Positions 5,355-32,901 of a DNA stretch of 64,000 nt are shown here, piece by piece. The stretch lies in the NCBI GenBank assembly GCA_037574385.1, contig GCA_037574385.1_4529.1. One strand, written 5' to 3'. The notes beneath the pieces are model-generated. The model saw nothing but the letters and a program-made list of their open reading frames with translations, was not told the DNA's origin and searched no databases. A program made the translations under genes and the position numbers. This DNA is from a phage. How positions within the stretch are numbered: position 1 is the stretch's first letter; each line of letters opens with the position of its first letter.

Positions 5355-6455
5355 TTACGCTGTGAAGATTTTATCCCACATTGCAACAACTGCATCTCGG
5401 TTATACTTCTTCCATACTGCTTCAGCACGTTTAACTCGAGCTTCGTATGTGTCAGTGAATTCTAATACAGCTTTTGTGTAAAGCGCAACTACTTCTTTCT
5501 TAGGAGTAGAGGAATCAATTTCTACACGCACAGTATCTGGGTCATATTCGAATGTCGCATGCGGATAATCCTTAAAAACTAACTGAATTACAGGGACACC
5601 TTTAGAAATGGCTTCAATAGAACTATTCTCTACCGTACCTGTGTCAGGACACGTATTAATAAGTGCTTTAGCTGTTTTAAGACGTTCCATAATTTCACTG
5701 TGTGGAGCATCAATAATAACAGGATACTTAGCCGGTGGTGCCCATTTACTAGGACAGTATCCTGCGCCATTTTCGCCTAGTGCTTTAATCGCTTCAAGAG
5801 CAACATCAGTACGACGCATTTTAGTGTCATAACGTTGTGCACTAATAATCAGATCAGTCGCCGGAAGAACTTCAGGTTTCTCATTCAAACAAATAACCGG
5901 ATAATCTTCGGCTTCAAACAACGGATTTGCTCGCCAATAATCATAATCAATTTTGTCAGTCAGACCTGAAGTCATATAACAATATTTGCGTTCAAATTCA
6001 CGGAAGGCTTTAGTAGGAGCATAACTCTTACCACCGTTCTTATGAATTTGAATAGTCTGGTCCCAAATTTGAACAATGCCACGAGATACCGGCTCAAACG
6101 GTGTTGCCATAAAATTCTTATGAACTTTAGAGAGACCTGCGTCTTTAATTGCCTGAACGGTTAGTTTAGTCGGTTCCATTGTAACAACGAAATCGTACTC
6201 ATTAATGCCGGCTAGTTCAACAATCTTACGAGCCATAGTATAACTCATACCTAGACTGAATTTAGTCAGATGACCAACAGGATGATGATTAACCTTCCAA
6301 TCACCAAACGTGTCATTATCAAAGCCGATATAATCAATATCAGCACCGATGGACACAAGATATTTCAACACATTTAAATGTACTGCTTCAAGACCACCTT
6401 GTACACGTTCTGGGTTAAACGGGACTGCGCGAGATGGGATAAACATAACTTTCAT
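5355..6455 (-). CDS. GT-B fold glycosyltransferase (GT4-like), candidate DNA sugar transferase
   Basis: 366 aa; C-terminal TGTVENSSIEAISKGVPVI resembles the GT4 E-x7-E/G-PVI donor-binding motif; sits between rIIA.1 and gene 39 where T4 has gene 60/mobA. Confidence 0.65.
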   Translation of the reverse strand: MKVMFIPSRAVPFNPERVQGGLEAVHLNVLKYLVSIGADIDYIGFDNDTFGDWKVNHHPVGHLTKFSLGMSYTMARKIVELAGINEYDFVVTMEPTKLTVQAIKDAGLSKVHKNFMATPFEPVSRGIVQIWDQTIQIHKNGGKSYAPTKAFREFERKYCYMTSGLTDKIDYDYWRANPLFEAEDYPVICLNEKPEVLPATDLIISAQRYDTKMRRTDVALEAIKALGENGAGYCPSKWAPPAKYPVIIDAPHSEIMERLKTAKALINTCPDTGTVENSSIEAISKGVPVIQLVFKDYPHATFEYDPDTVRVEIDSSTPKKEVVALYTKAVLEFTDTYEARVKRAEAVWKKYNRDAVVAMWDKIFTA

Positions 6456-6465
6456 AATTAAGCCT

Positions 6466-6499
6466 TATTAAAATTAAAATGAAGCTCCCGAAGGAGCTT
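6466..6499 (-). terminator. intrinsic terminator after gene 39
   Basis: Minus strand AAGCTCC-TTCG-GGAGCTT hairpin overlapping the gp39 stop, followed by CATTTTAATTTT. Confidence 0.5.
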
Positions 6500-8315
6500 A
6501 GGACATCCATTCTTTACGAAGTTCTGAATCATCACCCAACAACATTTCAAAGAGTTCTTTCCAATTTTCAGGAAGTTTAACTACGTCGTACACAGGGTTT
6601 TGAATCATTTCACGATATTCTGACTTTTCAAGGGAGCCCAATCCCTTGATGTATCGAATACTATGCTTAGGCAGTGTATCTTTAGCTTCTTCATACTCAG
6701 CTACAGTATAAAACCATTTTTGAGTTTTGCCGATTTGTGCAATAATTACAGGTGTTTTAACAAAGCGAATACGTCCTTGTTCAAACAATTCAGGCCAATT
6801 ACTAAAGAAAGCAAGCAAAGCCGGATAGATACTTCCAAGACCGTCATGATCGGCATCGGTCATAATTGCAATATTACGATAGTTCGTATTCTCTGCCTTT
6901 TCACCAAGAATAAGACCTGTGATAGCACAGATATCAAAGAGCTCTTTGTTCTTCATCATATCGGCATATGACATACCCCAGCTATTCATCACCTTACCAC
7001 GTAATGGGAATCCGCCGTGTAGTTCACGGTCACGAACATCAATGAGATATCCAATTGCCGAATCACCTTCTGTTAAAAACAATGTCGTATCTGCATCTTT
7101 ACCGCATTGGTTAGCTTTAATATGCTTATGAACCTTAGCTTTAGTTGCCTTTTTAGCTGCTTTAGTTTCTGCAGCCTTTTCTGCTGCCAATTTACGAGCT
7201 AATGCTGCTTCAACAATAGGCATAATCAAGGCTTCGTTTTTAAGAAGTGCCTGAGCAATTTTCTTAGCATCTAATTGGATATGATTACGAATATCACCAT
7301 ACGTTGACGTTAAACGTTCTTTAGTCTGAGAATCAAAACGCATGTTGCTCATGTCTCTAATAAACATCAACATTGTGAGACATTCTTTAACACGAGCTTT
7401 AGTGACTTCAATACCCTTATATTTCTTTTTAATACCCGGCAAAAGATGTTCGCAAATATCATCCATTACACATTCAACATGATGACCACCATTTTTAGTA
7501 TGGATGTTATTCACATAAGTTAAATGACGGAAGCCATCCGGTGATGTTGTGAATGCTATAGAGACTTTATCATTTTCTTGAATGATGTTATCTTCACCAA
7601 ATTGTTTAGCAAATCGTTTAAAATTGCCATCAACCTTTTTACCATTAAATGTGAACTTGATATCAGGATAAACGACTGCCAATGTTTGAAGTCGGTCTAA
7701 AGTAATATCTAAATAAATTTGAGATAAATTATGCTCTTCAAATGAAGTGAAATCAGGAGTGAAGATTACTTTAGTGCCTTTACCTTTAGATTTCTTAGAA
7801 GACCATGATTTGTTTTCCATTCCGTTTGAACAGTTAACAGTGATTTCATTTTCGCCATCTGACGTGATGCCTGTAAACAACGTAGAGAAGATATTAGTTA
7901 AACTACTCCCGACGCCGTTCATACCACCTGTCTTGCGTTCAGAGTCGTCACCAAAGTTACCACCGGCCTTTGGAATAGTCCAGGCTGCTACAGGCCCAGG
8001 AATTTGTTCACCCGTTTGGTCGGTAACTAAACCTTGAGGAATACCACGTCCGTTATCTTCCACTGAAACTTGATTATTTTTAATTTGCACATCAATTTTA
8101 TTTGCAAACTTAAATGATGTACGAATAGCTTCATCAACCGAGTTGTCAATAATCTCATCGATTAATTTAACCAGACCAGGAACATATTCAACTTGTTGAT
8201 ATTTACCAAACAAAAAACGCTCATGTGCTTCTTTAGCTGAAGAACCAATATACATACCACTACGTTTCTTAATATGTTCTACATCTGACAGTACCTTAAT
8301 TTCATTTTTAATCAT
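6498..8315 (-). CDS. 39: DNA topoisomerase II large subunit (ATPase), unsplit gp39/gp60 form
   Basis: 605 aa; N-terminus MIKNEIKVLSDVEHIKKRSGMYIGS and GyrB-like ATPase/TOPRIM motifs match recalled T4 gp39; GAGGAG SD. Confidence 0.93.
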   Translation of the reverse strand: MIKNEIKVLSDVEHIKKRSGMYIGSSAKEAHERFLFGKYQQVEYVPGLVKLIDEIIDNSVDEAIRTSFKFANKIDVQIKNNQVSVEDNGRGIPQGLVTDQTGEQIPGPVAAWTIPKAGGNFGDDSERKTGGMNGVGSSLTNIFSTLFTGITSDGENEITVNCSNGMENKSWSSKKSKGKGTKVIFTPDFTSFEEHNLSQIYLDITLDRLQTLAVVYPDIKFTFNGKKVDGNFKRFAKQFGEDNIIQENDKVSIAFTTSPDGFRHLTYVNNIHTKNGGHHVECVMDDICEHLLPGIKKKYKGIEVTKARVKECLTMLMFIRDMSNMRFDSQTKERLTSTYGDIRNHIQLDAKKIAQALLKNEALIMPIVEAALARKLAAEKAAETKAAKKATKAKVHKHIKANQCGKDADTTLFLTEGDSAIGYLIDVRDRELHGGFPLRGKVMNSWGMSYADMMKNKELFDICAITGLILGEKAENTNYRNIAIMTDADHDGLGSIYPALLAFFSNWPELFEQGRIRFVKTPVIIAQIGKTQKWFYTVAEYEEAKDTLPKHSIRYIKGLGSLEKSEYREMIQNPVYDVVKLPENWKELFEMLLGDDSELRKEWMS

Positions 8316-8337
8316 GTTGTCTCCTCGTTATGAAGGT

Positions 8338-8364
8338 ATTCTATCATCCGAAATCTAAAGCAAA
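8338..8364 (-). promoter_or_regulatory. middle-type promoter (MotA box TTTGCTTTA, 12-nt spacer, TAGAAT) for gene 39
   Basis: Minus strand TTTGCTTTAGATTTCGGATGATAGAAT; MotA box abuts the T-run of terminator 8355-8380. Confidence 0.45.
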
Positions 8365-8380
8365 AAGGGCCGAAGCCCTT
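8355..8380 (-). terminator. intrinsic terminator
   Basis: Minus strand AAGGGC-TTCG-GCCCTT followed by TTTTGCTTT. Confidence 0.5.
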
Positions 8381-8804
8381 ATTTAAATTTAATTTTCTGA
8401 AGTGCATCAATTGCAGCCAAACGCCCTTGTTCACTTTTAACTGTAATGACCACATCGCCTGATACGATCACCGAACCATCAACAAATTCTATAGAGTCTT
8501 TTTTGAAATCGACAGCTGTATCTGGTTCCGGAACTTCTTCAAAGAATTTAAATTCTGCACCATAAATCAGAATATCACCTTGCATACTATGAATAGTTCG
8601 GCCATAATCGCCTACGGCTTCTACAGCAATCATTGAAACACCGTAACCAATCATCTCTTCCACAATAAAATCTTTAGACAATAAAGTAGTATGCAGATTA
8701 GTATTAAGACGTTTACCAGTCGTATTAAGAATTCTCAAGAAATTATCTTCCTGTCCTTTGATAATACGGTATTTCTTGCCAATTTCAAAACCTTTAAAAG
8801 CCAT
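8379..8804 (-). CDS. hypothetical protein (141 aa; goF position)
   Basis: ORF with ATG at 8804; size and position as T4 goF, no motif support. Confidence 0.45.
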   Translation of the reverse strand: MAFKGFEIGKKYRIIKGQEDNFLRILNTTGKRLNTNLHTTLLSKDFIVEEMIGYGVSMIAVEAVGDYGRTIHSMQGDILIYGAEFKFFEEVPEPDTAVDFKKDSIEFVDGSVIVSGDVVITVKSEQGRLAAIDALQKIKFK

Positions 8805-8806
8805 AA

Positions 8807-8986
8807 TTATCCCTTCTTAAGTAAGTCGTAAAAACCACCGTTCACATGTTTAGGAGCAGAAACCCGACGAGTAGACAGACGATGACATTCAGGGCAAACA
8901 TCGTTTTCTCGTTCAGAAATCCTTTTAATTTTTTCATATTCATGACCACAATCTTCAGATTGACATTTATAGTCGTATAACGGCAT
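8807..8986 (-). CDS. small zinc-ribbon protein (59 aa)
   Basis: Not in ORF track (<60 aa); CxxxxC...CxxC (MPLYDYKCQSEDCGH...VCPECHRL); AAGGA SD; packed between neighbours with 2-nt gaps. Confidence 0.5.
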   Translation of the reverse strand: MPLYDYKCQSEDCGHEYEKIKRISERENDVCPECHRLSTRRVSAPKHVNGGFYDLLKKG

Positions 8987-8988
8987 TA

Positions 8989-9399
8989 TTATTCCTTAAA
9001 ATGTGTTTTCAACATTTGATACAAAGACCATGCCTGGTCGTTATTTTCGATAGTAATCGTCATCACCGGAAATTCGGTCAATTCATCAAGTTCTTCAGAG
9101 TCTTGCTCTTCAGACGCTTGATATGGATTTCCAACTTCATCAAAAAACTCTGCTTCACTAGTAGAGAGCCAGATAAAGTTTTCATCAAGAATATCACCAC
9201 CAGTTGCGTATCCAACCATGCCAGTAGATGTCACAATTTTAGTAGGTCGACCAAGATGGTCAACATCTAATACTTTAAATGGTTCCATGCCAAGACGTCG
9301 TGCATAAATCCCATTATCAGTGTGGTTTTTAATAAACTCTTCTTGGACACGTTTATCTTTAAATTGGTACCATGAGTTAACGCGGAATTTATTAGCCAT
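8989..9399 (-). CDS. hypothetical protein (136 aa)
   Basis: Track ORF trimmed to ATG at 9399 that overlaps the upstream stop (TAATG). Confidence 0.5.
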
Positions 9400-9626
9400 T
9401 AGTAAGTTTCCTTCCAATAAGTTGTACCATTTTCAGTGATTTCACGGAAGATACCATAGATAGGCATTTCATCACCGAGTTTTTCGTAAACGTAAACCAC
9501 TTCAGTGTAGCATAAAAATTCAGTCCAGTTTTTCTGTACAACAACTAAATCAGGATTAAACAGAACATCTTCAAACTCATCGATGTTTGAATCAGTAGTT
9601 ACGTTTTTAATGATTTGACGTTTCAT
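9399..9626 (-). CDS. hypothetical protein (75 aa)
   Basis: Internal ATG (MKRQ...) with AAGAGGAG SD downstream of early promoter 9655-9683. Confidence 0.5.
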
Positions 9627-11805: not shown

Positions 11806-12483
11806 TTATCGCTGTTTTACACTTAACGGGTCAGGATTCTCAGGGACATCTTCAAGGCCAAGCGCATAACGCTGAGCATATTTTAACATCAAAATATCTT
11901 TAGCACAATCATGAATACTATCATGGGCAATGAATCCTTTTAGCGTACCCATAGGTAATGGACACATACTTAATCCTCGCGTCAACGAGTAAGCTTCGAT
12001 TGCCGTACGAATATCGCGTTGAGCCCAGAATTTAACCGGTTCTAATTTATCAGTATCAATATCTGGTTCAAGAACACCTTCATCACGATAGAGGTCACGA
12101 ATCAAATCGACCAAGATCGGGAAGTCAAAGCTCATACCACGGCACCACATCTGTGATTTCCATTGGTCAACTTTATTAGCTCGACAATAATCTAAAAAGA
12201 TTTTAATGCCTTCAAGCGTAGTGACATCGTCTTCAGACGGAGCCAGGTTTTTACGTGCTTCTGCTGATTGTTCTTTCCACCATTTCATAGTGGATTTAGC
12301 GAAAACTCGCTTCCCTTTTTGAGAAGCTAAATTAAATTTAATTCGCTTACCTCGTTGAACAAGTTCTTCAAATGTTTCAACAACTTCAGGGTCCGAATTA
12401 TATGCAATAACCGCAAGGTCAATAACAGCCGCTTTTGATGTATTGCCGAATGTTTCAAAATCTATAATAACATCAGTGCTCAT
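11806..12483 (-). CDS. dexA: exonuclease A (DnaQ/DEDD-family 3'-5' exonuclease)
   Basis: 225 aa; DEDD motif IIDFETFG at N-terminus; position immediately downstream of dda as in T4. Confidence 0.8.
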   Translation of the reverse strand: MSTDVIIDFETFGNTSKAAVIDLAVIAYNSDPEVVETFEELVQRGKRIKFNLASQKGKRVFAKSTMKWWKEQSAEARKNLAPSEDDVTTLEGIKIFLDYCRANKVDQWKSQMWCRGMSFDFPILVDLIRDLYRDEGVLEPDIDTDKLEPVKFWAQRDIRTAIEAYSLTRGLSMCPLPMGTLKGFIAHDSIHDCAKDILMLKYAQRYALGLEDVPENPDPLSVKQR

Positions 12484-12492
12484 AATTTTCTC

Positions 12493-13806
12493 TCAAATAA
12501 AATGGACGTCAAAACGACCACGAGTCGTGCCGACATACAATAACTGTTTAGCTAATTCTGAATCGGCATAATGGATACAAGGTGTATAAACAAAGGCTGT
12601 GTCAACAGACATACCCTGAGCCTTATGGAAGGTTGATACTGGTAGTGCCTTCACCTTAGTGAACATACGTTTAGCATCCCAGAATTCGCTCCATGGAGCT
12701 TTACCACCTTTATTCCAGAATTTGTATGTTTCTGCAGTCTTAGCCAAAAACAAATTGAATTTATAAAGCTCTTCTTCAGAAGAAATAACCTTTATATCTT
12801 CGCGGATGTATTCTTCATCATCCCCATATGTTTCTACTGTAAGATTCCAGTATCGTATCATATACTCGCCAGAAACACCACGTGCTTTAACGAATGTAGA
12901 CGTTTCTACAGCATCTCGAATACGAACGAATTGCCCGTTATTGAAAAGCATTTCGGTCATATTTTTGCCATCTAGCTTATATGTCTTAGTAAATGGCTCT
13001 TGTAGAACAATGACCTCGTCTTTAATAAATGGCTTTTCTGTTTCAAGAAGTTTTCGGCGAATAATTGAATTCAACTTATCCACCGACTTATTTGTGAATG
13101 CCATCATTCGATTTTCGAAAAGGTCTTCAGGAGTTTTAACGACGTTAAAATAGTTCATCATATACGATTTAAGGTCTGTATATCCATGAACACCGTGCCC
13201 ATCAACTACTTTATCATAAATCCATTTGCCATTACGAATATCGGTCGCAACATCAATAATTGGTGCATTGCTACGTTTAACTTCTGTAAGGTTGCATTGC
13301 ACGAAGTCTTTGTGAGTGAAGAAAGGACTTAGATACGCAGTTGATTCGCCGGGGTCCACTGGACGAATCTGACATCGGTCACCAATTCCAATTACTGTAC
13401 ACCATTTAGGGATACTAGCTAACATTATTTTAAACAGAGAACGGTCACACATTGACGCTTCATCAAATAACAGTACACGACACAAGGCTAAGTCGGGAAC
13501 CTTTTTCTGTTCAAATAATACGTTTTCTTCGTATGTAGTTGGGTTGATTTTAAGAATGCTATGAATAGTCGATGCTTCTTGTCCAGCAAGTTTGCTTAGA
13601 ACCTTTTTAGCAGCGTGTGTTGGTGCTGCTAAAATAATACCTGATTCTCCAGAAGAAATAAGGGCTTCAACGATGAATCTAGTAAGGGTTGTTTTACCTG
13701 TACCCGCAGGTCCATTAATAGTTACGTGATGTTTCTTTTCTTTAATAGCTTTCATAACAACGTTGAAGGCGTTTTTCTGGCCTTCAGTCAAGTCATCAAA
13801 TGTCAT
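12493..13806 (-). CDS. dda: Dda DNA helicase (SF1B)
   Basis: 437 aa; MTFDDLTEGQKNAFN..., Walker A GPAGTGKTT; near-identical stretches to recalled T4 Dda. Confidence 0.92.
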   Translation of the reverse strand: MTFDDLTEGQKNAFNVVMKAIKEKKHHVTINGPAGTGKTTLTRFIVEALISSGESGIILAAPTHAAKKVLSKLAGQEASTIHSILKINPTTYEENVLFEQKKVPDLALCRVLLFDEASMCDRSLFKIMLASIPKWCTVIGIGDRCQIRPVDPGESTAYLSPFFTHKDFVQCNLTEVKRSNAPIIDVATDIRNGKWIYDKVVDGHGVHGYTDLKSYMMNYFNVVKTPEDLFENRMMAFTNKSVDKLNSIIRRKLLETEKPFIKDEVIVLQEPFTKTYKLDGKNMTEMLFNNGQFVRIRDAVETSTFVKARGVSGEYMIRYWNLTVETYGDDEEYIREDIKVISSEEELYKFNLFLAKTAETYKFWNKGGKAPWSEFWDAKRMFTKVKALPVSTFHKAQGMSVDTAFVYTPCIHYADSELAKQLLYVGTTRGRFDVHFI

Positions 13807-14114
13807 CGTAAAGTCCCTGCAATTGGAATACTAACAATACGGCCAGTATCTAGAATTCGTTGATACAATCTTTGCGTCTCTGCATCTAGTTTAACGTGTT
13901 TCATTTCAAGCTTATTAAACCAGAACTTACGCGGAGTTTCGACCATTCTTAGAACTCCCATTTTTAAATCTGTTTTATACTGTGTTTTCAAAGTATCGAA
14001 AACTTTATCTGCAATATCCTTTCTAAAAAATACTGCAGGACGATATTCATCAAGAGGAACCGGGACAGTAAATCCTTCCATATCTCGATAAACTATTGCA
14101 TATACATAAACCAT
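13803..14114 (-). CDS. hypothetical protein (dda.1 position)
   Basis: 103-aa ORF with ATGA overlap onto dda. Confidence 0.5.
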   Translation of the reverse strand: MVYVYAIVYRDMEGFTVPVPLDEYRPAVFFRKDIADKVFDTLKTQYKTDLKMGVLRMVETPRKFWFNKLEMKHVKLDAETQRLYQRILDTGRIVSIPIAGTLR

Positions 14115-24745: not shown

Positions 24746-25087
24746 TTAAAAGAATTTAAATTTTTTCTTGGTTCGTTCATTAAAAGCTTGTTGTACCTGC
24801 ATTGTAACACATTTTTCAACATGCGGCGCAAGTTCTGCTTTTCTGTCCTGGTCAAGAACTGCAAAGTCCATTACGATTTTACCATCAACCCAATCTAGTT
24901 TTGTAATATAGACTATATGATGGGAGCCGTCTTCAAGTGTAATCAGAATCTCTTGAATGACATTTTCCATTGCTGAACGGATAATTTTAAGAGATTCATT
25001 AAACACTCGTTCTTTGCGAATGTCTTCCCCTTCCGAAGAAGGGGATTCATCAACGATTTCTAGATTCAAATCATCGAGATTATTCAT
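24746..25087 (-). CDS. gp40-like protein (by position)
   Basis: Track ORF trimmed to ATG with GGAAGA SD; between 41 and uvsX. Confidence 0.45.
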   Translation of the reverse strand: MNNLDDLNLEIVDESPSSEGEDIRKERVFNESLKIIRSAMENVIQEILITLEDGSHHIVYITKLDWVDGKIVMDFAVLDQDRKAELAPHVEKCVTMQVQQAFNERTKKKFKFF

Positions 25088-26252
25088 CGAAATCTTCCAT
25101 TTCGTCAAGGTCGTTTTCTATATCTGCTGCAGATGGAGCATCAGAAGCTTTAACCGGAACTTTAGTTGTTGCTTTGCAATTAATAAGGTCGTTAACAGCG
25201 TCATCAACTTCTTTAATAGAAGAGATAGCACCTAGTTTATATTTAGTTTCAATTGCATCTCGGAAAGGTTTGTGTTTAAACAACGGTCCCCAGAATTCTA
25301 CACAATCAGTAGCTTTAGCACGCCATGATTTCTCTTCACGAATCATTTCGCCTGTTTCTTCGTCAAGGAATTCGCGAGCATACCACCCAGCTTTAGGCTT
25401 AACTACAAAACCAATTTCGGTTGCCATTTCTAGCAAGCCACTGAATGGGTCGATACCGCCATCAAAATTAACCGTGATCGGGAAAGTAGATTTCTCTTTA
25501 ACTGTACGAGATTTTTCTGCTTTCAACGTGAAGTCATAACCGGTCAATTCTGTACCTTCTTTAACCTGACGTTTAGAGATAAAGAATACAGTGTTAGCAG
25601 AGTAAAGAATACCTGTACCACCGCCCATAATCTCTTTAGGATATAGTCCGCCGATTTCCATTGCGGTATGGTTGATTGCAACACACGGAATATCTTTAAT
25701 AGTCAGATAAGGAGTCACAATGCGGAAAAGAGATTTAAGTGCCTTAGCACGAGACATATCACCTACGACTTTCTCGTTCAATGCATCTTCGGTTTCTTTC
25801 TTAGATGCAGTATTACCGATTGAATCGATAAAGATAATAACTTTATCACCGCGTTCAATTGCATCAAGCTGATTAGTCATATCAACTTTAAGTTGTTCGA
25901 CAGACTGAATTGGTGTATGAACTACACGGTCTAAATCAACACCCATTGAACGAAAATAAGATTCTGAAGCACCAAATTCCGAGTCATAAAACAAACAGAT
26001 TGCATCTTTATATTTCTTCATATACGCTGCAACCATAGTCAGCCCAAACAATGTTTTAAAATGTTTAGAAGGTGCAGCAAAAATAGTCAAGCCTGATTGC
26101 AATCCTGCATTCAGAGCACCACCTAGTGCAATATTCAACATCGGAATACGAGTAGGGACTTCATCACGATTATTAAACAGCTTAGACTTAGTCAAGTCTG
26201 CAGTCATTTTAGAAGTAGAAGCTTTAATCAGACGAGATTTTAAATCAGACAT
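25080..26252 (-). CDS. uvsX: UvsX recombinase (RecA/Rad51 family)
   Basis: 390 aa; MSDLKSRLIKASTSK..., Walker A GPSKHFKT; long identical stretches to recalled T4 UvsX. Confidence 0.93.
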   Translation of the reverse strand: MSDLKSRLIKASTSKMTADLTKSKLFNNRDEVPTRIPMLNIALGGALNAGLQSGLTIFAAPSKHFKTLFGLTMVAAYMKKYKDAICLFYDSEFGASESYFRSMGVDLDRVVHTPIQSVEQLKVDMTNQLDAIERGDKVIIFIDSIGNTASKKETEDALNEKVVGDMSRAKALKSLFRIVTPYLTIKDIPCVAINHTAMEIGGLYPKEIMGGGTGILYSANTVFFISKRQVKEGTELTGYDFTLKAEKSRTVKEKSTFPITVNFDGGIDPFSGLLEMATEIGFVVKPKAGWYAREFLDEETGEMIREEKSWRAKATDCVEFWGPLFKHKPFRDAIETKYKLGAISSIKEVDDAVNDLINCKATTKVPVKASDAPSAADIENDLDEMEDFDE

Positions 26253-26351: not shown

Positions 26352-26900
26352 TTAACGAGCCCATTTGATAATTTCTGTAATCAAATTATTACGTTCGCTT
26401 GCATTAAATCCTATAACTTTGTTAGCACCATCATGATTAAGTAATTGATACGTTTGGATTTTGTTATGAATTGCAAACTCTTCAAAATGTGAAATGACTG
26501 TATTAAAACCGAATGAAGACAAAGTAATAAGGTCGTCTTCAAAACTTTCAGTCATTTCGTTACGTGTTAAAATAATTGTGAACACATCATGGTTTTGGCA
26601 AAGACGAATATAATCCTGTTCATAAACGTCAAGAACCGAGTCCGCATCTTGTCGAATACGTCCATAAACCCAGTTACTAATATATCCACGGTCTAATAGA
26701 TAAATCTTAGTAGGGTCTAAATAATTCAACATCGTTTCGAAACAGCCAACTTCATTTCGAGACTTAACATCGAAACGCCCATCAACTGTTCGTTTAGGGA
26801 AATCAATCTTTACATATCTTTCACTAATTTCCATTATGTCATTAATGAAAGTTGTTTTACCAGCATTATCCGGTCCGTCTACTAAAATAATTTTAGCCAT
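26352..26900 (-). CDS. P-loop nucleotide kinase (thymidylate/dNMP kinase-like)
   Basis: 182 aa; Walker A VDGPDNAGKTT and DRGYIS lid-like motif; at the T4 beta-gt locus between uvsX and 42. Confidence 0.6.
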   Translation of the reverse strand: MAKIILVDGPDNAGKTTFINDIMEISERYVKIDFPKRTVDGRFDVKSRNEVGCFETMLNYLDPTKIYLLDRGYISNWVYGRIRQDADSVLDVYEQDYIRLCQNHDVFTIILTRNEMTESFEDDLITLSSFGFNTVISHFEEFAIHNKIQTYQLLNHDGANKVIGFNASERNNLITEIIKWAR

Positions 26901-26901
26901 T

Positions 26902-27801
26902 TTATTCCTCGATTACGACATCTTCGTATTTAGGTATATTATACGGTGAAGAAATTAAAGCATTAAAGTAGATGAACTCACCAAGACCTGGATGGAATAC
27001 TTCTTCAGGATTTTCGAAATATTGAATCTTCGGACGTCCTTTAAGAATTTGATAGTACTCAGTTTTAGTTGGTTTAAAAATTCGAATCAGCGCTTCTTCA
27101 GGGTACTTATTTCTGTCGAAGCTAATATTTGGATCTGTTATATAAAGCGGTTGGCCTAATTGAATTGCACATTCAACCACTTGTTCAAAACGATAGCACG
27201 GGTCACTAATTCGAAATGGATGAAAAATACCATCTAGATGAATAGGAGCCAAATCACCTACAAGACGCTGCATGATGGAAGGACGTATAACTTTCTGCGT
27301 TACGATAATCTTATTACCATCTGCACCTGCGTTAACCAGCACTTCCTTTTGACGTTCATTCAACACAGTAGTTTGAAGTGAACGATTAACCGACAACATA
27401 TCGGTTTTTAAGAATTCATCAATATAAAAGCGTGGTTTATTAGGGTCTGTAGTGATATTGAAATTGAATTCCACATCAAAAGCGCCATCATATCCAGTGA
27501 TATCTGTGATTAGAAAATCACAATCATAATAAGCAATTAATGAATCAACCACAAATTCATTTTCAGACCAGAAATATTTACGAGTGTTATACGCGTTATC
27601 TTTATACCATAATGGAACAAACTTAAATTCCGGGAAAAGACGTTCACATTCTTTAATATCAGATGCATTACGTGGATATGTAATCACATCACCCGGATTA
27701 GCACGGTGCAAATGAAGTTGGAAGTTGCCATCCTTAAGGATAGCATACTGTCCAGTTTCATAAGACCGCATACTCAAGATTGGTACGCGGAAAATAGCCA
27801 T
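26902..27801 (-). CDS. hypothetical protein (299 aa) at beta-glucosyltransferase locus; candidate DNA-modification enzyme
   Basis: Translationally coupled to gene 42; no similarity to recalled T4 beta-gt; function by synteny only. Confidence 0.55.
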   Translation of the reverse strand: MAIFRVPILSMRSYETGQYAILKDGNFQLHLHRANPGDVITYPRNASDIKECERLFPEFKFVPLWYKDNAYNTRKYFWSENEFVVDSLIAYYDCDFLITDITGYDGAFDVEFNFNITTDPNKPRFYIDEFLKTDMLSVNRSLQTTVLNERQKEVLVNAGADGNKIIVTQKVIRPSIMQRLVGDLAPIHLDGIFHPFRISDPCYRFEQVVECAIQLGQPLYITDPNISFDRNKYPEEALIRIFKPTKTEYYQILKGRPKIQYFENPEEVFHPGLGEFIYFNALISSPYNIPKYEDVVIEE

Positions 27802-28517
27802 TAGTCAAGGAATCCTTTAACATAATCAAAATCACGTTCAAACACATGGGCACTTACCATGGTATGAGTATAATCACCAACTTCTACACCGCATTCGTTA
27901 GCGATATAATGAAGTAATTTTCCTTGGAGATAAAAATCCAACTGCATAACAACAGCACAGTTCTGAGAACGCATATGGCAGTGCGTATAAAGCTTACCAT
28001 CACGAATATAATAAGTAACTGAGTCAGTACATGGATATTCAAGCGTTTCGTCTGAATCAAGCAAAGCCTGATCAGAACTTTCTAGAATTTGGAACACAAC
28101 TCTTCGGGAGTTAGGCTTCTCTTTAAGTTCTTTTAGAAGAGCTGGTAATTGGGCCGCAATGCGAGGACCATAGAAAGTGTTGAAGTTCGCCGGCAAAACA
28201 TCTGATTTTGGTTTAGAAATAAATTTAGCGACATTAGGATATGCCTTAAACGCTTCTTCTGCGTTGGTACCACCAGAAATCATAAACTTCCAGAAGTCTT
28301 CGGCATATTCATAAGAGATGCGGTTAATACGTGGGTCGGTCATTTTGAATGATGATGGAGTGTCAACAACTACTGTCATAGACCCAATTTCATTACAACG
28401 TCCAATACGAGAATCAGTTACGAATTCCGGGTTTTCTAAAATTTCACGATTGACTGCTTTAAATGCGGTTTGAAAATCTGCGGCTTTGATATATTTCATT
28501 GTGTTATGTTTTCCCAT
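27801..28517 (-). CDS. 42: deoxycytidylate 5-hydroxymethyltransferase (thymidylate synthase fold)
   Basis: 238 aa; RRVVFQI...YPCTDSVTYYIRDGKLYTHCHMRSQN parallels T4 gp42 catalytic region; position between uvsX and 43. Confidence 0.8.
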   Translation of the reverse strand: MGKHNTMKYIKAADFQTAFKAVNREILENPEFVTDSRIGRCNEIGSMTVVVDTPSSFKMTDPRINRISYEYAEDFWKFMISGGTNAEEAFKAYPNVAKFISKPKSDVLPANFNTFYGPRIAAQLPALLKELKEKPNSRRVVFQILESSDQALLDSDETLEYPCTDSVTYYIRDGKLYTHCHMRSQNCAVVMQLDFYLQGKLLHYIANECGVEVGDYTHTMVSAHVFERDFDYVKGFLD

Positions 28518-28536: not shown

Positions 28537-28559
28537 ATTATATACTCAATTCGTAAAGC
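28537..28559 (-). promoter_or_regulatory. possible middle-type promoter for gene 42 (imperfect MotA box GCTTTA, 11-nt spacer, TATAAT)
   Basis: Minus strand AAGCTTTACGAATTGAGTATATAAT. Confidence 0.3.
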
Positions 28560-28799
28560 TTATTTGAATTTCTTGACAATGTTGATATAACGTAAAGCTT
28601 CAGCATCGATACTTCCAAGGACACTATGAAGAAATGCATCAGCGTAGTATTCCAATTGAATAGGTTCTTTAATCACTTTAGCCGCTTTGGTTTCAAACAG
28701 GCCCATCAGGGCCTTTTTAAGAATTTGTTCGTTGCTGTTAATTTTCGTAGTCAAAATCTCTTCATTAAGTTGGTGGTTAAAAGTTTTTCTAGAAATCAT
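28560..28799 (-). CDS. hypothetical protein (79 aa)
   Basis: ATGA-coupled to upstream gene. Confidence 0.45.
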   Translation of the reverse strand: MISRKTFNHQLNEEILTTKINSNEQILKKALMGLFETKAAKVIKEPIQLEYYADAFLHSVLGSIDAEALRYINIVKKFK

Positions 28800-29956
28800 T
28801 CCGGGTACCTCAAAGCGTCATCAGAGTTAGTTATATCAATAATAGATATAGAGTTTTCTGCTAACCCATTTTTAGATAATTGACGTTTATAATATCTTTC
28901 ACAATATGTACACGTTGACCCACAGATTTCATTAGCACAATCAAAATCAGGATGTCTGAACCACCTTTTTTCTAAAAAGCCATCTAACAAAGAGGTTTCA
29001 ATATTTACTGTATGTGAAAACTCAGTCTCATTTTCAAGAGTGAAAATAGTCTCTAAAGGCTTCCACAGTTCTAACAAATTACCTTCAAACTTTTCAGAAG
29101 CGTATGCTTCAAGAACTTTCAAAATGTAGTCTGTGCTACCTGTACGTCCTGAAACTTTGAATTGAGTGATACCAATATCATTATAAAGTTTCAAATCTTG
29201 AGGACGAACAAAACGAGTTCTCAACCAGTTAAATGGGTCTGTATCACGAGCTTTAATACAGTGCTGCATTGGATATCCATTTAAGGATTTAGCATCATCA
29301 GCTGTAACATCAGTACTATGGAAAATATAGCAAGAGTCACGATAGCTACAATGTGTTGTATACCCTTTACCAGCATTAGAACAGAACTCATTTACAAGAA
29401 CTTCAAATATTATATTGTTCTTATTGCAAAACTCTGCTGCACGCTTCAGGAAAGAAACTGAACGGTTCTTATGAATTCCACAGCAGACCTTTTTGATATT
29501 ATATTGGTCATGCAAGTATTTGATTTGAGTTACGGCATCGACATGTAGAATTGTTGAAACTTCAATCTCAATATCTTTATTGACTTCACGAACAATTTCC
29601 ATAACAACAGGGTTAGCGATAGTAATACGCCATACGCCTATTGACCAAAGATACTGAACATAATCCTGAATAGCTTTCTTCTTCCACTCAACTAGTTCTC
29701 TTTTTGAACCAGGATTTATCGTGTTGAGTGTATAGTTAAAGCAAATACCTAATTCGTTACAACGTTTAACGTAGTCTTCTAACATCTTTTTGTCAACGTC
29801 AGGAAGCCTAAAATCAGGTCTGGCTGCTACAAAAGCCATTTCTCTTGTAGAGCCATATACTTCGTTTATCAAGCTATTAGGATAGGTTTTATTGAGCTCT
29901 ACGATTTTATCAAGAAGAGCTAAATCAAAATTCGTTCCGATTTTAAAAGTATTCAT
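28796..29956 (-). CDS. Cys-rich putative Fe-S protein (386 aa), unknown function
   Basis: Track ORF (GTG) trimmed to first ATG; Cys cluster VCCG...EFC...EFCSNAGKGYTTHCSYRDSC and C-terminal CGSTCTYC (CX3CX2C). Confidence 0.55.
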   Translation of the reverse strand: MNTFKIGTNFDLALLDKIVELNKTYPNSLINEVYGSTREMAFVAARPDFRLPDVDKKMLEDYVKRCNELGICFNYTLNTINPGSKRELVEWKKKAIQDYVQYLWSIGVWRITIANPVVMEIVREVNKDIEIEVSTILHVDAVTQIKYLHDQYNIKKVCCGIHKNRSVSFLKRAAEFCNKNNIIFEVLVNEFCSNAGKGYTTHCSYRDSCYIFHSTDVTADDAKSLNGYPMQHCIKARDTDPFNWLRTRFVRPQDLKLYNDIGITQFKVSGRTGSTDYILKVLEAYASEKFEGNLLELWKPLETIFTLENETEFSHTVNIETSLLDGFLEKRWFRHPDFDCANEICGSTCTYCERYYKRQLSKNGLAENSISIIDITNSDDALRYPE

Positions 29957-30012
29957 TTTTTTGCATCTCACGTTAATTGATGCGATGGTTTTTGCAGGTC
30001 TTACTTAAATTA

Positions 30013-30399
30013 TTATAGATTCGGTTTATATGATTTAAATGTTTCGAATTCGCCTTTATTCATAAGAGCTTTGAATTCGTCAGGACGCATAGCTTTGTCG
30101 TCGATAATCCAATCATATACTGGTTTATGTGTTAGCAAATTATGGTACTTCAAGCCAATGTTTGCCAAGTTCTGAATCAGACTTGGGAGAATGTCAATTG
30201 CTATACGTCCAGGACCTACTGACTTCATACCACGAGCAGTGTAAAGCGTTATGGTATGCCCTGCATCATACAGGGCATTAATGGCAGACACCATTTCGAC
30301 GTCTGGTTTGAAGTTCACGTAATCGCGATTGTTATTCCATTCTGTGATGCAATCATCGACATCAAAACAAAGATTAAGCATGTTTTCTACACGGTGCAT
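30013..30399 (-). CDS. HAD-superfamily phosphatase (small; start uncertain)
   Basis: N-terminal LCFDVDDCIT (HAD motif I-like), LYTARG, YDWIIDDKA; chosen ATG overlaps upstream stop (TAATG); alternative ATGs at 30414 and 30381. Confidence 0.55.
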   Translation of the reverse strand: MHRVENMLNLCFDVDDCITEWNNNRDYVNFKPDVEMVSAINALYDAGHTITLYTARGMKSVGPGRIAIDILPSLIQNLANIGLKYHNLLTHKPVYDWIIDDKAMRPDEFKALMNKGEFETFKSYKPNL

Positions 30400-32084
30400 T
30401 AGATTTGTTCCCATTGATGAGTGATATCGCCACCGATTGGACGATAAGAAACACCAGTTTCTTTATCAGTTAGTACCCATTTACCAGGATTTTTTGTAAT
30501 CAGAGTAGCCGTTACAGGTTCTGCTACGTCATAACTAATAGAGCCGTCTTGAAGTACACGGCCCATGTTACGTAATTGCTTAGTTAGAAGTTCCATACCT
30601 TTATAATATGCGGCTACCGCTTTAAGTGGATTATTCTTGAAATAACCACCTAATGCAATCCAGATAATTGCCACTGCCAAATGATGATACTCGTTAAACG
30701 AACTCATCTTTCCATATTTGTAAACTAATGGATTGATGTTAATAGTCACATTACAAGTTGTTTCATCAATAATAAACTGGCCCCAGGTCGGATTAGCGTT
30801 GAATTCATCATAACCTGAAACAGCATAAAGCACTTTAGCTTCATCATACAATTTTGGCCCGTAAATCTTGGTTTCACCAAAATATCCACGAGGGTCGATA
30901 AACTTGACTTCGCCGTTATCAGTAATCATAGTATTACTGAAGTTCGGGTCACCGTGAATAACAGAGTACTGTCCCTGAGAACGGTTATGATAACGAATAA
31001 GGTGTTCTAAAGCTTGTTTCAGCATTGGCTTCAGACGTCCAATCTTAGTGTAGTTCACGTGTGTGATTTTACCAAATGAATCAATCAATGGCTGAATGCT
31101 TTCACAACGATCAATAACTTTCGTATAGAACTCTTTAGTGAAATCACGACGAACAGTTTCAGGACTTACAAAATAAATGTCTGTGTTAAATTTCAGTGCA
31201 TCTAAAATTGCATCAATAATTTGTGGACGAGCAAGACTTGATTTGGATTTAATATATTCAAATGCTGGCTTACCTTTAATGCGTTCCATTTCAAAGTTAT
31301 TTTCATTAACAGAAACTAACTGAGGAACTGAATCTGATTTCACTTTCAAATACCATGAAATCTCATCTTTTTGAAGAGCTCGACCTTGTTCAGTTAATGC
31401 GAATTTAGTTACAGTTTCTTCACCAATTTCAACCGCATTAAAACTACGATTAAGTTCACGAACTTCATGAGCTTTTTCAAGTTTAGGCATATCACCAAGG
31501 TCGATGATATTCATAAGCTCTGATTTATTGAATGCGCCGCTGTAAAGGAATTCTACAAAATCACGTCCTTTGCAGTATTCGTGAATTTCCTCATCAGTAG
31601 AACCCATGTAGAATTCCCAGTCTTTGAACTGATAAATTCCTACAACATTACCGCCTGTTGCACCTACATTAGTGATATTTTCACCATCGAAATTATATCG
31701 ACATTCATCACCTTTAACATAGATTGCGTTAACATTCCAAGACCATGAACCAAAATCAGGAATAATATCACACCAGTTAACAACTACGTTATGGCCGTCT
31801 AAATCTTTGTGTAATTTAGCAAGAGCATAAGCAGAACCATACGCTTCATCAACTGTACGAATAGTCACATTGAACCCTTCTTGCTCACAATAAGCTCGAA
31901 CAGTTTCAGCAAATTTTGAATGAACTACTACAATAATTTCATCTGCGCCAAGGTCAGAATAAATTGTATACAAATTGCTCAGAATAGTGTCTTGTTTATA
32001 GTTCACAAGAACTTTTGGAATATGGTGAGTAATTGGATATAAACGAGTTGCCAATCCAGCACCAAGAATAACAGCTTTTTTCAT
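30399..32084 (-). CDS. bifunctional sugar-1-phosphate nucleotidyltransferase / APH-type sugar kinase
   Basis: 561 aa; N-terminus ILGAGLATRLYPIT (RmlA/GlmU-type G-x-G-T-R-L-x-P-x-T); C-terminal VIHGDPNFSNTMI and IDPRGYFG (APH/choline-kinase catalytic loop). Confidence 0.7.
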   Translation of the reverse strand: MKKAVILGAGLATRLYPITHHIPKVLVNYKQDTILSNLYTIYSDLGADEIIVVVHSKFAETVRAYCEQEGFNVTIRTVDEAYGSAYALAKLHKDLDGHNVVVNWCDIIPDFGSWSWNVNAIYVKGDECRYNFDGENITNVGATGGNVVGIYQFKDWEFYMGSTDEEIHEYCKGRDFVEFLYSGAFNKSELMNIIDLGDMPKLEKAHEVRELNRSFNAVEIGEETVTKFALTEQGRALQKDEISWYLKVKSDSVPQLVSVNENNFEMERIKGKPAFEYIKSKSSLARPQIIDAILDALKFNTDIYFVSPETVRRDFTKEFYTKVIDRCESIQPLIDSFGKITHVNYTKIGRLKPMLKQALEHLIRYHNRSQGQYSVIHGDPNFSNTMITDNGEVKFIDPRGYFGETKIYGPKLYDEAKVLYAVSGYDEFNANPTWGQFIIDETTCNVTININPLVYKYGKMSSFNEYHHLAVAIIWIALGGYFKNNPLKAVAAYYKGMELLTKQLRNMGRVLQDGSISYDVAEPVTATLITKNPGKWVLTDKETGVSYRPIGGDITHQWEQI

Positions 32085-32139: not shown

Positions 32140-32269
32140 CATACTTTGCCTGTAGACCAATCATAATCCATCCAATTACAAGTGTTGGAATCATTACTGG
32201 AGCCGTTAAGCTCCAGTAGATAGTCATGACAAGCATCAATAGTAAAAGTCCTATTGTTATTGCTTTCAT
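32126..32269 (-). CDS. small hydrophobic peptide (47 aa)
   Basis: Not in track; ATG overlaps the stop of the SIS gene (ATGA); predicted membrane helices. Confidence 0.35.
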   Translation of the reverse strand: MKAITIGLLLLMLVMTIYWSLTAPVMIPTLVIGWIMIGLQAKYECFN

Positions 32270-32901
32270 TGTTCGCCTCGTAACATGGCACCTAGTGCAC
32301 CGCCAGGGTGGAACTTAAGGAAATCATTAGAGGTAAATCCGCGTTCAGACGAAAGGTTGATAGCGAACGTATCGATAAGCGCTAACAACAATGTAGTGGA
32401 CATAGTCGGAGCTAAAGAGTTCTCGTCAACTTCTACCGCGATACCGGTACAGAATGTATAATCAAAAAGAGCTTCGTATTCTTGTGGAATGTCAGGGTTA
32501 CAATGTAACAGAATCTGTTTAACCTGAGGACGAATCATACGAAGATGTTTAGCAACACCTATCATTTCTTCAGTCTTACCAGAACGACTGATGTGAACTA
32601 ATACATCATTAGGTGCAATGAATCCTGCATCACCGTGAGAATAATGCCCAGTGTTCAAATACATGCTAGGAATACCTAGTGAAGCAAAAGTCTCGGAAGC
32701 TTTAGTTGCGATATTAGCGTTCTTACCAACACCTGTAATAATTACACGACTTTCATAATTACTCAGTCCTGGGCGTCGAAGAGTTTCTAGAATAGCATTA
32801 TAACGAGCAGGGTTTTGACTAATTACTTTGGCCATAGCGGCCAAAGAAGAAGCTTGTTTTATGATTGCGTCAATAGCGATAGTGATTGGTGTAGTTTTCA
32901 T
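32266..32901 (-). CDS. SIS-domain sugar-phosphate isomerase (KdsD/GutQ-like arabinose-5-phosphate isomerase, no CBS domains)
   Basis: 211 aa; ITGVGKNANIATKASETFASLGIPS, ISRSGKTEE, LAPTMSTT, FHPGGALG match KdsD SIS-domain motifs. Confidence 0.7.
   Translation of the reverse strand: MKTTPITIAIDAIIKQASSLAAMAKVISQNPARYNAILETLRRPGLSNYESRVIITGVGKNANIATKASETFASLGIPSMYLNTGHYSHGDAGFIAPNDVLVHISRSGKTEEMIGVAKHLRMIRPQVKQILLHCNPDIPQEYEALFDYTFCTGIAVEVDENSLAPTMSTTLLLALIDTFAINLSSERGFTSNDFLKFHPGGALGAMLRGEQ

Follow-up and report, generated by a model that had tools for sequence, protein, structure and literature searches.

Thymidylate-kinase-fold and GT-B-fold proteins in the arabinosyl-5-hydroxycytosine DNA-modification cluster of an RB69-like phage

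Two adjacent ORFs between uvsX and the gene 42 position of an RB69-like phage, encoding proteins of 182 and 299 aa, belong, we conclude with somewhat better than even confidence, to a gene cluster that replaces virion-DNA cytosine with arabinosylated 5-hydroxycytosine in a five-step order. The 299-aa protein is a GT-B fold glycosyltransferase with a putative activity on 5-hydroxycytosine, while the 182-aa protein has the fold of a thymidylate kinase (TMPK) and is a candidate 5-hydroxy-dCMP kinase. The locus is an arabinosyl-5-hydroxycytosine DNA-modification cluster of the RB69/HY126/DLP3 type, already described in outline in the 2025–2026 literature. As a discovery it is not new, the cluster having been published by Lee et al. 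(NAR 2026, PMC13326640), and the roles of the two proteins, called open in a preliminary description of this DNA, are no longer fully so. Arabinosylated 5-hydroxycytosine was measured in virion DNA of RB69; for the phage analysed here it is predicted.

The window, i.e. the whole stretch of phage DNA analysed (64,000 nt; assembly GCA_037574385.1, contig GCA_037574385.1_4529.1), is ~98% identical to phages RB69 and HY126, and we assign it to an RB69-like Mosigvirus. The 1.65-kb region of the two ORFs has 98.1–98.6% identity to ~150 Mosigvirus genomes, RB69 and HY126 included. In T4 the interval from uvsX to gene 42 holds segA and beta-gt, so the replacement of beta-gt at this locus, as given in the preliminary description, is borne out; both ORFs lie where that description put them, on the minus strand, and the motifs it quoted, ILVDGPDNAGKTT and LLDRGYISNW, are found in the 182-aa protein. 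In the T4 region, counterparts to window proteins are confined to DNA polymerase, UvsX and a 25%-identical gene 42 product; there is no kinase homologue. Upstream of the gene for a 238-aa thymidylate-synthase homologue, in the gene 42 position, are a 79-aa ORF and genes for a U32-family protein, a HAD phosphatase, a 561-aa fusion protein, a SIS-domain isomerase and DNA polymerase (Table 1). The cluster genes are all present and intact, and those for UDP-arabinofuranose supply (isomerase, 561-aa bifunctional enzyme and HAD phosphatase) are 97–99% identical to the genes of RB69.

Table 1. Genes and sites of the modification cluster and its surroundings in the window
Feature	Coordinates	Strand	Remarks
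366-aa second glycosyltransferase (RB69 gp3 orthologue)	5355..6455	-	Between rIIA and topoisomerase gene; E 2.6e-248 to PDB 9iqz/9ir0 'phage HY126 glycosyltransferase'
uvsX	25080..26252		Downstream of the 182-aa kinase gene
182-aa P-loop kinase, divergent thymidylate-kinase fold	26352..26900	-	ATG start; orthologue of RB69 gp45, DLP3 gp78; proposed 5-hydroxy-dCMP kinase
299-aa compact GT-B fold glycosyltransferase	26902..27801	-	ATG start; orthologue of RB69 gp46:47, DLP3 gp79, Thanatos TH1_063; proposed first arabinosyltransferase on 5-hydroxycytosine
238-aa thymidylate-synthase homologue, flavin-dependent 5-hydroxy-dCMP synthase	27801..28517	-	Match to PDB 9iqc/9ir2; D169N and N177D
Possible MotA-type middle promoter	28539..28560	-	AGCTTTA, 9-nt spacer, TATAAT, read by eye; upstream of the synthase-transferase-kinase unit
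79-aa ORF	28560..28799	-	Start overlaps U32 gene stop by 4 nt
391-aa peptidase-U32-family protein (RB69 gp50)	28796..29971	-	Pfam PF01136, E 7.4e-11; aligned with UbiU, UbiV, TrhP, RlhA
133-aa HAD-type sugar phosphatase (RB69 gp51, HY126 AfhF equivalent)	30013..30414	-	NCBIfam TIGR01689 capsule biosynthesis phosphatase, E 4e-13; EcbF/BcbF phosphatase family
561-aa bifunctional sugar kinase / sugar-1-phosphate uridylyltransferase (RB69 gp52:53, HY126 AfhE equivalent)	30399..32084	-	Pfam NTP_transferase N-terminal, weak APH/kinase matches C-terminal; role in UDP-arabinofuranose synthesis
211-aa arabinose-5-phosphate isomerase (RB69 gp55)	32266..32901	-	Pfam SIS domain; NCBIfam KpsF/GutQ E 9e-32, KdsD E 4e-30

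Stop and start codons overlap where the 238-aa gene meets the 299-aa ORF (TAATG at 27801), which agrees with the coupling to 'gene 42' noted earlier, and the 299-aa stop and the kinase ATG have one base between them (TAAaATG at 26902/26900). The overlap and the one-base gap thus make the 238-aa, 299-aa and 182-aa genes one translationally coupled unit. A scan of the region for sigma-70 promoters and terminators yielded fewer sites than shuffled sequence, or no excess. The RB69 reference record lists the 182-aa ORF as RB69p045 and names it 'thymidylate kinase'. In that record the 299-aa ORF, intact in the window, is split by a frameshift into ORF046c and ORF047c, a split that Lee et al. put down to sequencing error (NAR 2026, PMC13326640).

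The nature of the base is set by the 238-aa protein. Its identity to T4 gp42 is 25%, as against 99% to RB69 gp48 and ~98% to the solved HY126 enzyme PDB 9iqc (full-length match to 9iqc/9ir2, E 7.9e-161). Where T4 gp42 reads RSND...RND, the window protein reads RSQN...QLD (D169N and N177D), and D169N is the published signature that defines flavin-dependent 5-hydroxy-dCMP synthases. By its sequence the protein is a hydroxylase, not the hydroxymethylase for which the preliminary description took it. RB69 gp48 was shown to convert dCMP to 5-hydroxy-dCMP with a loosely bound flavin and with oxygen taken from O2, as traced by 18O2 labelling (Lee et al., NAR 2026, PMC13326640). Since this 99%-identical enzyme makes 5-hydroxy-dCMP in an O2-dependent way, the relevant chemistry is that of 5-hydroxycytosine and arabinose, not of hydroxymethylcytosine and glucose.

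Several further results of Lee et al. (PMC13326640) bear on the two ORFs. In RB69 DNA, LC-MS and NMR showed beta-D-Araf-(1-3)-alpha-D-Araf attached through an ether bond, the base being 5-hydroxycytosine instead of hydroxymethylcytosine; no phosphate is reported in the final modification. The T4-gp1-type kinase of RB69, gp159, phosphorylates 5-hydroxy-dCMP, and gp48 together with gp159 is enough to place 5-hydroxycytosine in E. coli DNA. In their Table 1, gp46:47 is named 'arabinosyltransferase 1' and gp45 'nucleotide kinase', by structure prediction alone. Purified DLP3 transferases, the gp79 orthologue included, were individually inactive on 5hoC-DNA with UDP-Araf or UDP-Arap; later arabinosylation steps take place on DNA, and the authors cannot tell whether the first one occurs on the mononucleotide or on DNA. 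They credit He et al. (2026) with showing that UDP-arabinofuranose is made in HY126 by the bifunctional enzyme and the phosphatase; the title of that work speaks of hydroxylation followed by arabinofuranosylation. Rhizobium phage RL38J1 has hexoses rather than arabinose on its 5-hydroxycytosine and the same kinase-GT-synthase triad, with RL38J1_214 listed as 'nucleotide kinase' (PMC13326640).

In its sequence the 299-aa protein does lack recognisable motifs, as the preliminary description said: Pfam and NCBIfam (both at E up to 0.1), phmmer and a 51-sequence profile run against PDB sequences gave no match, none of 120 listed homologues has a Pfam domain, and the canonical EX7E pair is not evident; E275 alone is present there, after the invariant HPG of a conserved HPGxxE segment. 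Its structure is more telling. Two Rossmann-like beta/alpha/beta domains can be superposed on known GT-B enzymes; the top structural matches are all glycosyltransferases, with no nucleotidyltransferase among them, and T4 alpha-GT is one of the structural matches. The protein is a GT-B fold glycosyltransferase outside the sequence-defined families, an assignment that independently reproduces the published one and leaves its activity putative. Homology to T4 beta-gt was considered and rejected (best E 3.7). Isoelectric points (5.13 for the 299-aa protein, 6.11 for T4 alpha-GT and 9.05 for T4 beta-GT) are uninformative on DNA binding. Identity is 98–99% to RB69 gp46:47 and 47.5% to Thanatos TH1_063, and 139 representatives of metagenomic clusters match the protein, down to 36% identity. 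The preliminary description had raised the possibility of a second transferase; a transferase it is, but it is more likely the first, base-proximal one, the second being the 366-aa protein encoded near rIIA.

Structural matches place the 182-aa protein in the TMPK fold, and a search of viral structures returned TMPKs and no DNA kinases. RB69p045, 98% identical, has the same TMPK structural matches, and many phage records label the protein 'thymidylate kinase'. The type-I TMPK motifs GxDxxGK(T/S)T, FPxR and DR..S are conserved in its family, with invariant positions (G9, D11, G14, K15 and T16; F34, P35 and K36; D70, R71 and S75) that align with vaccinia TMPK, yeast TMPK and E. coli Tmk. Type-I TMPKs have a catalytic arginine in the P-loop and type-II enzymes an arginine-rich lid. 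At the type-I arginine position the kinase family has an invariant Asn12, and the lid of E. coli Tmk, KRARARGELDR, is without counterpart, an invariant F-x-DDLI-x-L segment standing there. Sequence-only searches produced P-loop-level or marginal TMPK matches: the TIGR00041 score was 16.5 bits versus a cutoff of 83.25 bits, the Pfam model Thymidylate_kin (PF02223) gave no match, and hhalign with E. coli Tmk aligned just 25 columns. Two distant relatives do score above the Pfam Thymidylate_kin cutoff (P0188, 33 bits; P0197, 37 bits), and two others are fused to a domain similar to HhH-GPD DNA glycosylases (P0179, 26.7 bits with a cutoff of 26.2 bits; P0180, 22.0 bits, below the cutoff).

The substrate of the kinase is suggested by its genomic company. 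We placed the window proteins on loci from eight phages (seven non-T4 genera and T4). The cluster, kinase and transferase included, is retained in all seven non-T4 genera (Mosigvirus, Thanatos, Dhakavirus, Lazarusvirus, Muldoonvirus, Bragavirus and Marfavirus), and in each of them the transferase gene directly follows the synthase gene. The kinase gene comes directly after the transferase gene in four genera (RB69, Thanatos, DLP1 and WSPA) and directly after the HAD phosphatase gene in the other three (PSD9, Proteus PM2 and Marfa). By tblastn, 349 phage records carry the 299-aa protein and 351 carry the kinase, the counts per genus being nearly equal; both proteins are conserved far more than chance would allow. 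The order transferase-kinase-uvsX is repeated at two further loci (L018 and L019). On a metagenomic contig (L014), an HhH-GPD-like kinase fusion has a D169N-type synthase on one side and an FMN reductase on the other, with an arabinose-5-phosphate isomerase and a homologue of the bifunctional enzyme further along, and at another locus (L015) the gene of a D169N-type synthase is overlapped at its end by a second fusion of this kind; at neither of these two does a transferase gene separate the kinase relative from the synthase. Because these distant relatives adjoin D169N synthases in this way, what the kinase tracks is the 5-hydroxy-dCMP synthase, not the transferase or the sugar, and the linkage favours 5-hydroxy-dCMP as the probable substrate rather than dTMP. 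The triad of the hexose-bearing RL38J1 also supports such a role. The earlier proposal of a TMP-kinase-like protein tied to modified-nucleotide metabolism is therefore probably right on the grounds of fold, motifs and linkage to D169N synthases, the substrate itself being one that we infer.

In the order of steps that we favour, the 238-aa synthase would hydroxylate dCMP at C5 with flavin and O2, an activity that others have demonstrated for its orthologues in RB69 and HY126. The 182-aa kinase would convert 5-hydroxy-dCMP to the diphosphate (step 2, suggested by fold, motifs and linkage), host NDP kinase would form the triphosphate and the phage polymerase would incorporate it. Isomerase, 561-aa kinase/uridylyltransferase and HAD phosphatase would supply UDP-D-arabinofuranose (step 3), in line with what is credited to the HY126 work. 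The 299-aa GT-B enzyme would then attach the first arabinose to the base at its 5-hydroxyl, in a reaction that is probably retaining and probably takes place on DNA, which would give the alpha linkage (step 4), and the 366-aa transferase would add the second arabinose (step 5). Translational coupling would keep synthase, transferase and kinase co-expressed. For step 4 the argument comes from the fold, from the invariant adjacency to the synthase and synteny, and from phage Thanatos, whose DNA is mono-arabinosylated (PMC13326640) and which carries only the 299-aa type of transferase.

Some observations fit this order poorly. The individual inactivity of the DLP3 transferases on 5hoC-DNA speaks against it, as does the UDP-xylose synthesis reported for Thanatos TH1_063. 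RB69 gp159 already phosphorylates 5-hydroxy-dCMP, and gp45 is not strictly required, since gp48 and gp159 suffice in E. coli (PMC13326640). The kinase lacks both the type-I P-loop arginine and the type-II arginine-rich lid and falls far below curated TMPK thresholds; its gene follows that of the sugar phosphatase, not that of the transferase, in three genera; and the HhH-GPD fusions of its relatives hint at a role at the DNA level.

Four other readings were weighed. A general role for the 182-aa protein as dTMP (or dNMP) kinase, boosting nucleotide supply with no specific link to modification, we consider improbable. TMPK fold and motifs would suit such an enzyme, as would the label in many records, yet the protein occurs in almost exactly those records that have the transferase, rearrangement has not taken its gene out of the cluster, its distant relatives accompany D169N synthases, the equivalent T4 region holds no homologue, and its score is far below the TIGR00041 equivalog cutoff for dTMP kinases. 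Moreover, T4-like phages already have gp1 for dTMP, and this too argues against a general kinase. Distinctly improbable, and in one place of our assessment rated slightly lower still, is glycosylation before replication, in which the 299-aa enzyme would arabinosylate free 5-hydroxy-dCMP, the TMPK-like kinase would handle the bulky product and the polymerase would incorporate a sugar-bearing triphosphate. A gp1-type kinase would not accept arabinosyl-5-hydroxy-dCMP, hence the need for the 182-aa enzyme; this would account for a second nucleotide kinase although gp159 takes 5-hydroxy-dCMP, and for a lid region remodelled relative to TMPKs. The adjacency and coupling of transferase and kinase genes in four genera point the same way. 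So does the inactivity of each DLP3 transferase by itself on 5hoC-DNA, and Lee et al. leave it unsettled where the first arabinosylation takes place (PMC13326640). Set against this are the three genera in which the kinase gene is apart from the transferase gene, the L014 and L015 kinases that adjoin a synthase with no transferase between, the later arabinosylations on DNA (PMC13326640), the order of events in the title of the HY126 paper and the T-even precedent, where glycosylation is post-replicative, T4 alpha-GT being among the structural matches. To our knowledge, such a route, if real, would have no natural precedent as a way to make a glycosylated deoxynucleotide as a monomer.

Two further readings assign different chemistry to the enzymes. 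According to a published Thanatos study, His-tagged TH1_063 with UTP and xylose-1-phosphate gave UDP-xylose by LC-MS, from which the 299-aa protein, 47.5% identical, could be a UDP-pentose pyrophosphorylase (sugar-1-phosphate uridylyltransferase) and not a glycosyltransferase acting on DNA or nucleotides. The GT-B fold and the structural matches, glycosyltransferases with no nucleotidyltransferase, make this role unlikely, as does the dedicated nucleotidyltransferase domain of the 561-aa protein, credited in HY126 with making UDP-arabinose; the acceptors of that study had no 5-hydroxyl, its sugar was xylose and carry-over of a host GalU-type enzyme was, as we infer, not excluded, so that we give the pyrophosphorylase very little credence. 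Even less should be staked on a kinase that acts on DNA, or with a DNA-bound enzyme, phosphorylating a hydroxyl of the modified base or sugar by analogy with the 5-hydroxymethyluracil DNA kinases of thymidine hypermodification. Relatives fused to the base-flipping glycosylase-like HhH-GPD domain (P0179 and P0180), encoded beside D169N synthases, would suit this idea; apart from them, a role like that of 5-hmU DNA kinases found no structural or motif support and was rejected. The TMPK residues that bind the acceptor 5'-phosphate (FPxR and DR) are conserved, the viral structure search gave TMPKs and no DNA kinases, and the final RB69 base has no reported phosphate (PMC13326640).

Outside the coupled unit, the U32-family protein and its neighbours make a separate observation. 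RlhA, TrhP and UbiU/V, with which it aligns, are, like it, members of the U32 family. RlhA and TrhP are oxygen-independent, prephenate-dependent hydroxylases, RlhA making 5-hydroxycytidine in rRNA. Chorismate mutase makes prephenate. In Thanatos the U32 gene forms a translationally coupled pair with a chorismate mutase gene, which in Proteus PM2 lies between the U32 and synthase genes; 50 phage records have homologues of the mutase, usually next to the 'peptidase'. The 79-aa ORF of the window, with homologues only in Mosigvirus, fills the slot of this gene in other genera; that it is itself a diverged chorismate mutase was rejected on the evidence so far (no Pfam match, hhalign probability 0.7%). 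As the gp48-type synthase needs O2, the U32 protein and chorismate mutase may, by analogy with RlhA, supply a way to 5-hydroxycytosine that works anaerobically. Lee et al. call gp50 a 'sugar or heterocycle reductase', and U32, prephenate and chorismate are absent from their text (PMC13326640); in the literature searched, no paper links them.

Arabinosyl-5-hydroxycytosine shields many T4-like phages, a large group of them, from restriction enzymes, from DNA glycosylases and from some CRISPR systems. Phages bearing the transferase (~350 genomes in the collection searched) infect Escherichia, Shigella, Klebsiella, Acinetobacter, Serratia, Yersinia and Proteus hosts, and the modification is relevant to phage therapy and to engineering of these phages. 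Of the whole pathway, the 182-aa and 299-aa genes, for a second nucleotide kinase and the enzyme of the base-sugar bond, have been characterised least in the open literature. Further papers on the cluster, by Mahler et al. in Cell Host Microbe in 2025 and He et al. in Nat Chem Biol in 2026, may contain assays of both proteins. Settling both roles would complete the pathway; it would also provide a kinase that takes 5-substituted dCMP analogues and an enzyme for the direct O-glycosylation of a nucleobase.

Compared with known systems, the 299-aa protein shows no difference of substance from RB69 gp46:47, DLP3 gp79 and TH1_063, apart from the split in the RB69 record. GT4-type retaining enzymes (sucrose-phosphate synthase 6kih, BshA 6n1x, PimA 2gej and WaaG 8b5s) share 7–13% identity with it and are ~60–100 residues longer (GT-B enzymes of 340–400 aa versus 299), and the GT4-type Pfam models Glycos_transf_1 and Glyco_trans_4 do not detect it. 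The T4 beta-GT and alpha-GT, of 351 and 400 aa, use UDP-glucose as donor and 5-hydroxymethylcytosine as acceptor, whereas UDP-arabinofuranose and 5-hydroxycytosine are proposed for the window protein. The 182-aa kinase does not differ from RB69 gp45, DLP3 gp78 and RL38J1_214. Type-I TMPKs (vaccinia A48R 2v54, yeast 1tmk and human 1e2d) are ~16% identical to it, with Asn in place of their P-loop Arg/Lys, and are linked to dTMP synthesis, while the 182-aa kinase is linked genomically to 5-hydroxy-dCMP synthases. A parallel in role may be the T4 gp1 deoxynucleoside monophosphate kinase (1dek), which would be analogous in phosphorylating a modified dCMP made by a thymidylate-synthase homologue.

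In the fetched regions of the arabinosyl-5-hydroxycytosine modification cluster, no homologue of the window's arabinose-5-phosphate isomerase was found in Dhakavirus PSD9, Proteus PM2, Klebsiella Marfa or Thanatos, and the regions of PSD9 and of two further phages, DLP1 and WSPA, lack the U32 gene. Therefore, within these regions, the invariant core of the cluster is made up of the bifunctional kinase/uridylyltransferase, the HAD-type phosphatase, the O2-dependent 5-hydroxy-dCMP synthase, the 299-aa transferase and the 182-aa kinase. Two of the core genes, those of the transferase and the 561-aa bifunctional enzyme, are each represented by two ORFs in the RB69 genome (NC_004928). Both are intact in the window and in most related genomes, which fits the idea that the splits stem from sequencing errors in this old record. 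Coordinates are listed in the table.

Coordinates of genes and regions in the window and in the compared loci
Feature	Location	Strand	Remarks
366-aa glycosyltransferase	window 5355-6455	-	flanked by rIIA and topoisomerase gene
299-aa transferase	window 26902-27801	-	
79-aa ORF	window 28560-28799	-	start overlaps U32 stop by 4 nt
U32-family protein	window 28796-29971	-	counterpart regions: Thanatos (L002) 7462-8852; Proteus PM2 (L007) 5797-8294
561-aa bifunctional enzyme	window 30399-32084		
Isomerase	window 32266-32901		
Transferase, two ORFs	RB69 (L001) 8650-9550		
Bifunctional enzyme, two ORFs	RB69 (L001) 12147-13833		
TH1_063	Thanatos (L002) 5995-6897		orthologue of 299-aa transferase, 47.5% identical
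Extended kinase relatives	L014 6001-7074; L015 1446-2390		P0179, P0180; also P0185, P0187

The Thanatos protein TH1_063 was given UDP-xylose pyrophosphorylase activity in a 2025 paper. This assignment is at odds with its GT-B fold, as well as with the presence of a dedicated nucleotidyltransferase in the same cluster.

The 366-aa glycosyltransferase, which had no match in a Pfam search, is nearly identical to 'phage HY126 glycosyltransferase', the structure of which is known (PDB 9iqz/9ir0, E 2.6e-248); its RB69 orthologue is gp3. We presume that this protein is the second arabinosyltransferase.

Distant relatives of the window kinase (P0179, P0180, P0185 and P0187; E ~1e-19 to 1e-12) carry an extra ~150 aa at the C-terminus. 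In P0179 the extension matches Pfam HhH-GPD, a domain of the DNA glycosylase superfamily, with 26.7 bits (cutoff 26.2); the score for P0180, 22.0 bits, is below the cutoff. A nucleotide-kinase-like domain appears fused to a base-flipping domain. The P0179 and P0180 genes directly follow genes of D169N-type thymidylate synthase homologues. Alongside such a fusion and synthase, the metagenomic contig L014 carries genes for an FMN reductase, an arabinose-5-phosphate isomerase and a homologue of the bifunctional enzyme.

In genera other than that of the window, a chorismate mutase gene accompanies the U32 gene of the cluster. Its position is taken in the window by the 79-aa ORF, whose homologues were found in Mosigvirus only; this ORF does not resemble chorismate mutase (Pfam gave no match; hhalign probability 0.7%).

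Thanatos TH1_066 (Pfam CM_2, 34.7 bits), whose start overlaps the U32 stop, and Proteus PM2 gp015 (46.8 bits) are such chorismate mutases; homologues occur in 50 phage records, most of them adjoining the U32 gene (annotated as 'peptidase'). When the U32 proteins of the phages are aligned with known members of the family, some of the cluster cysteines prove to be conserved, and the phage sequences have an additional C-terminal CX5CX3CX2C motif. In the accessible literature, we did not find the U32/chorismate mutase pair linked to anaerobic synthesis of 5-hydroxycytosine. Hydroxylation by RlhA (ho5C in rRNA) and by TrhP (ho5U) depends on prephenate and needs no O2; by analogy, the phage pair may provide an anaerobic route to 5-hydroxycytosine, a backup for the O2-dependent synthase.
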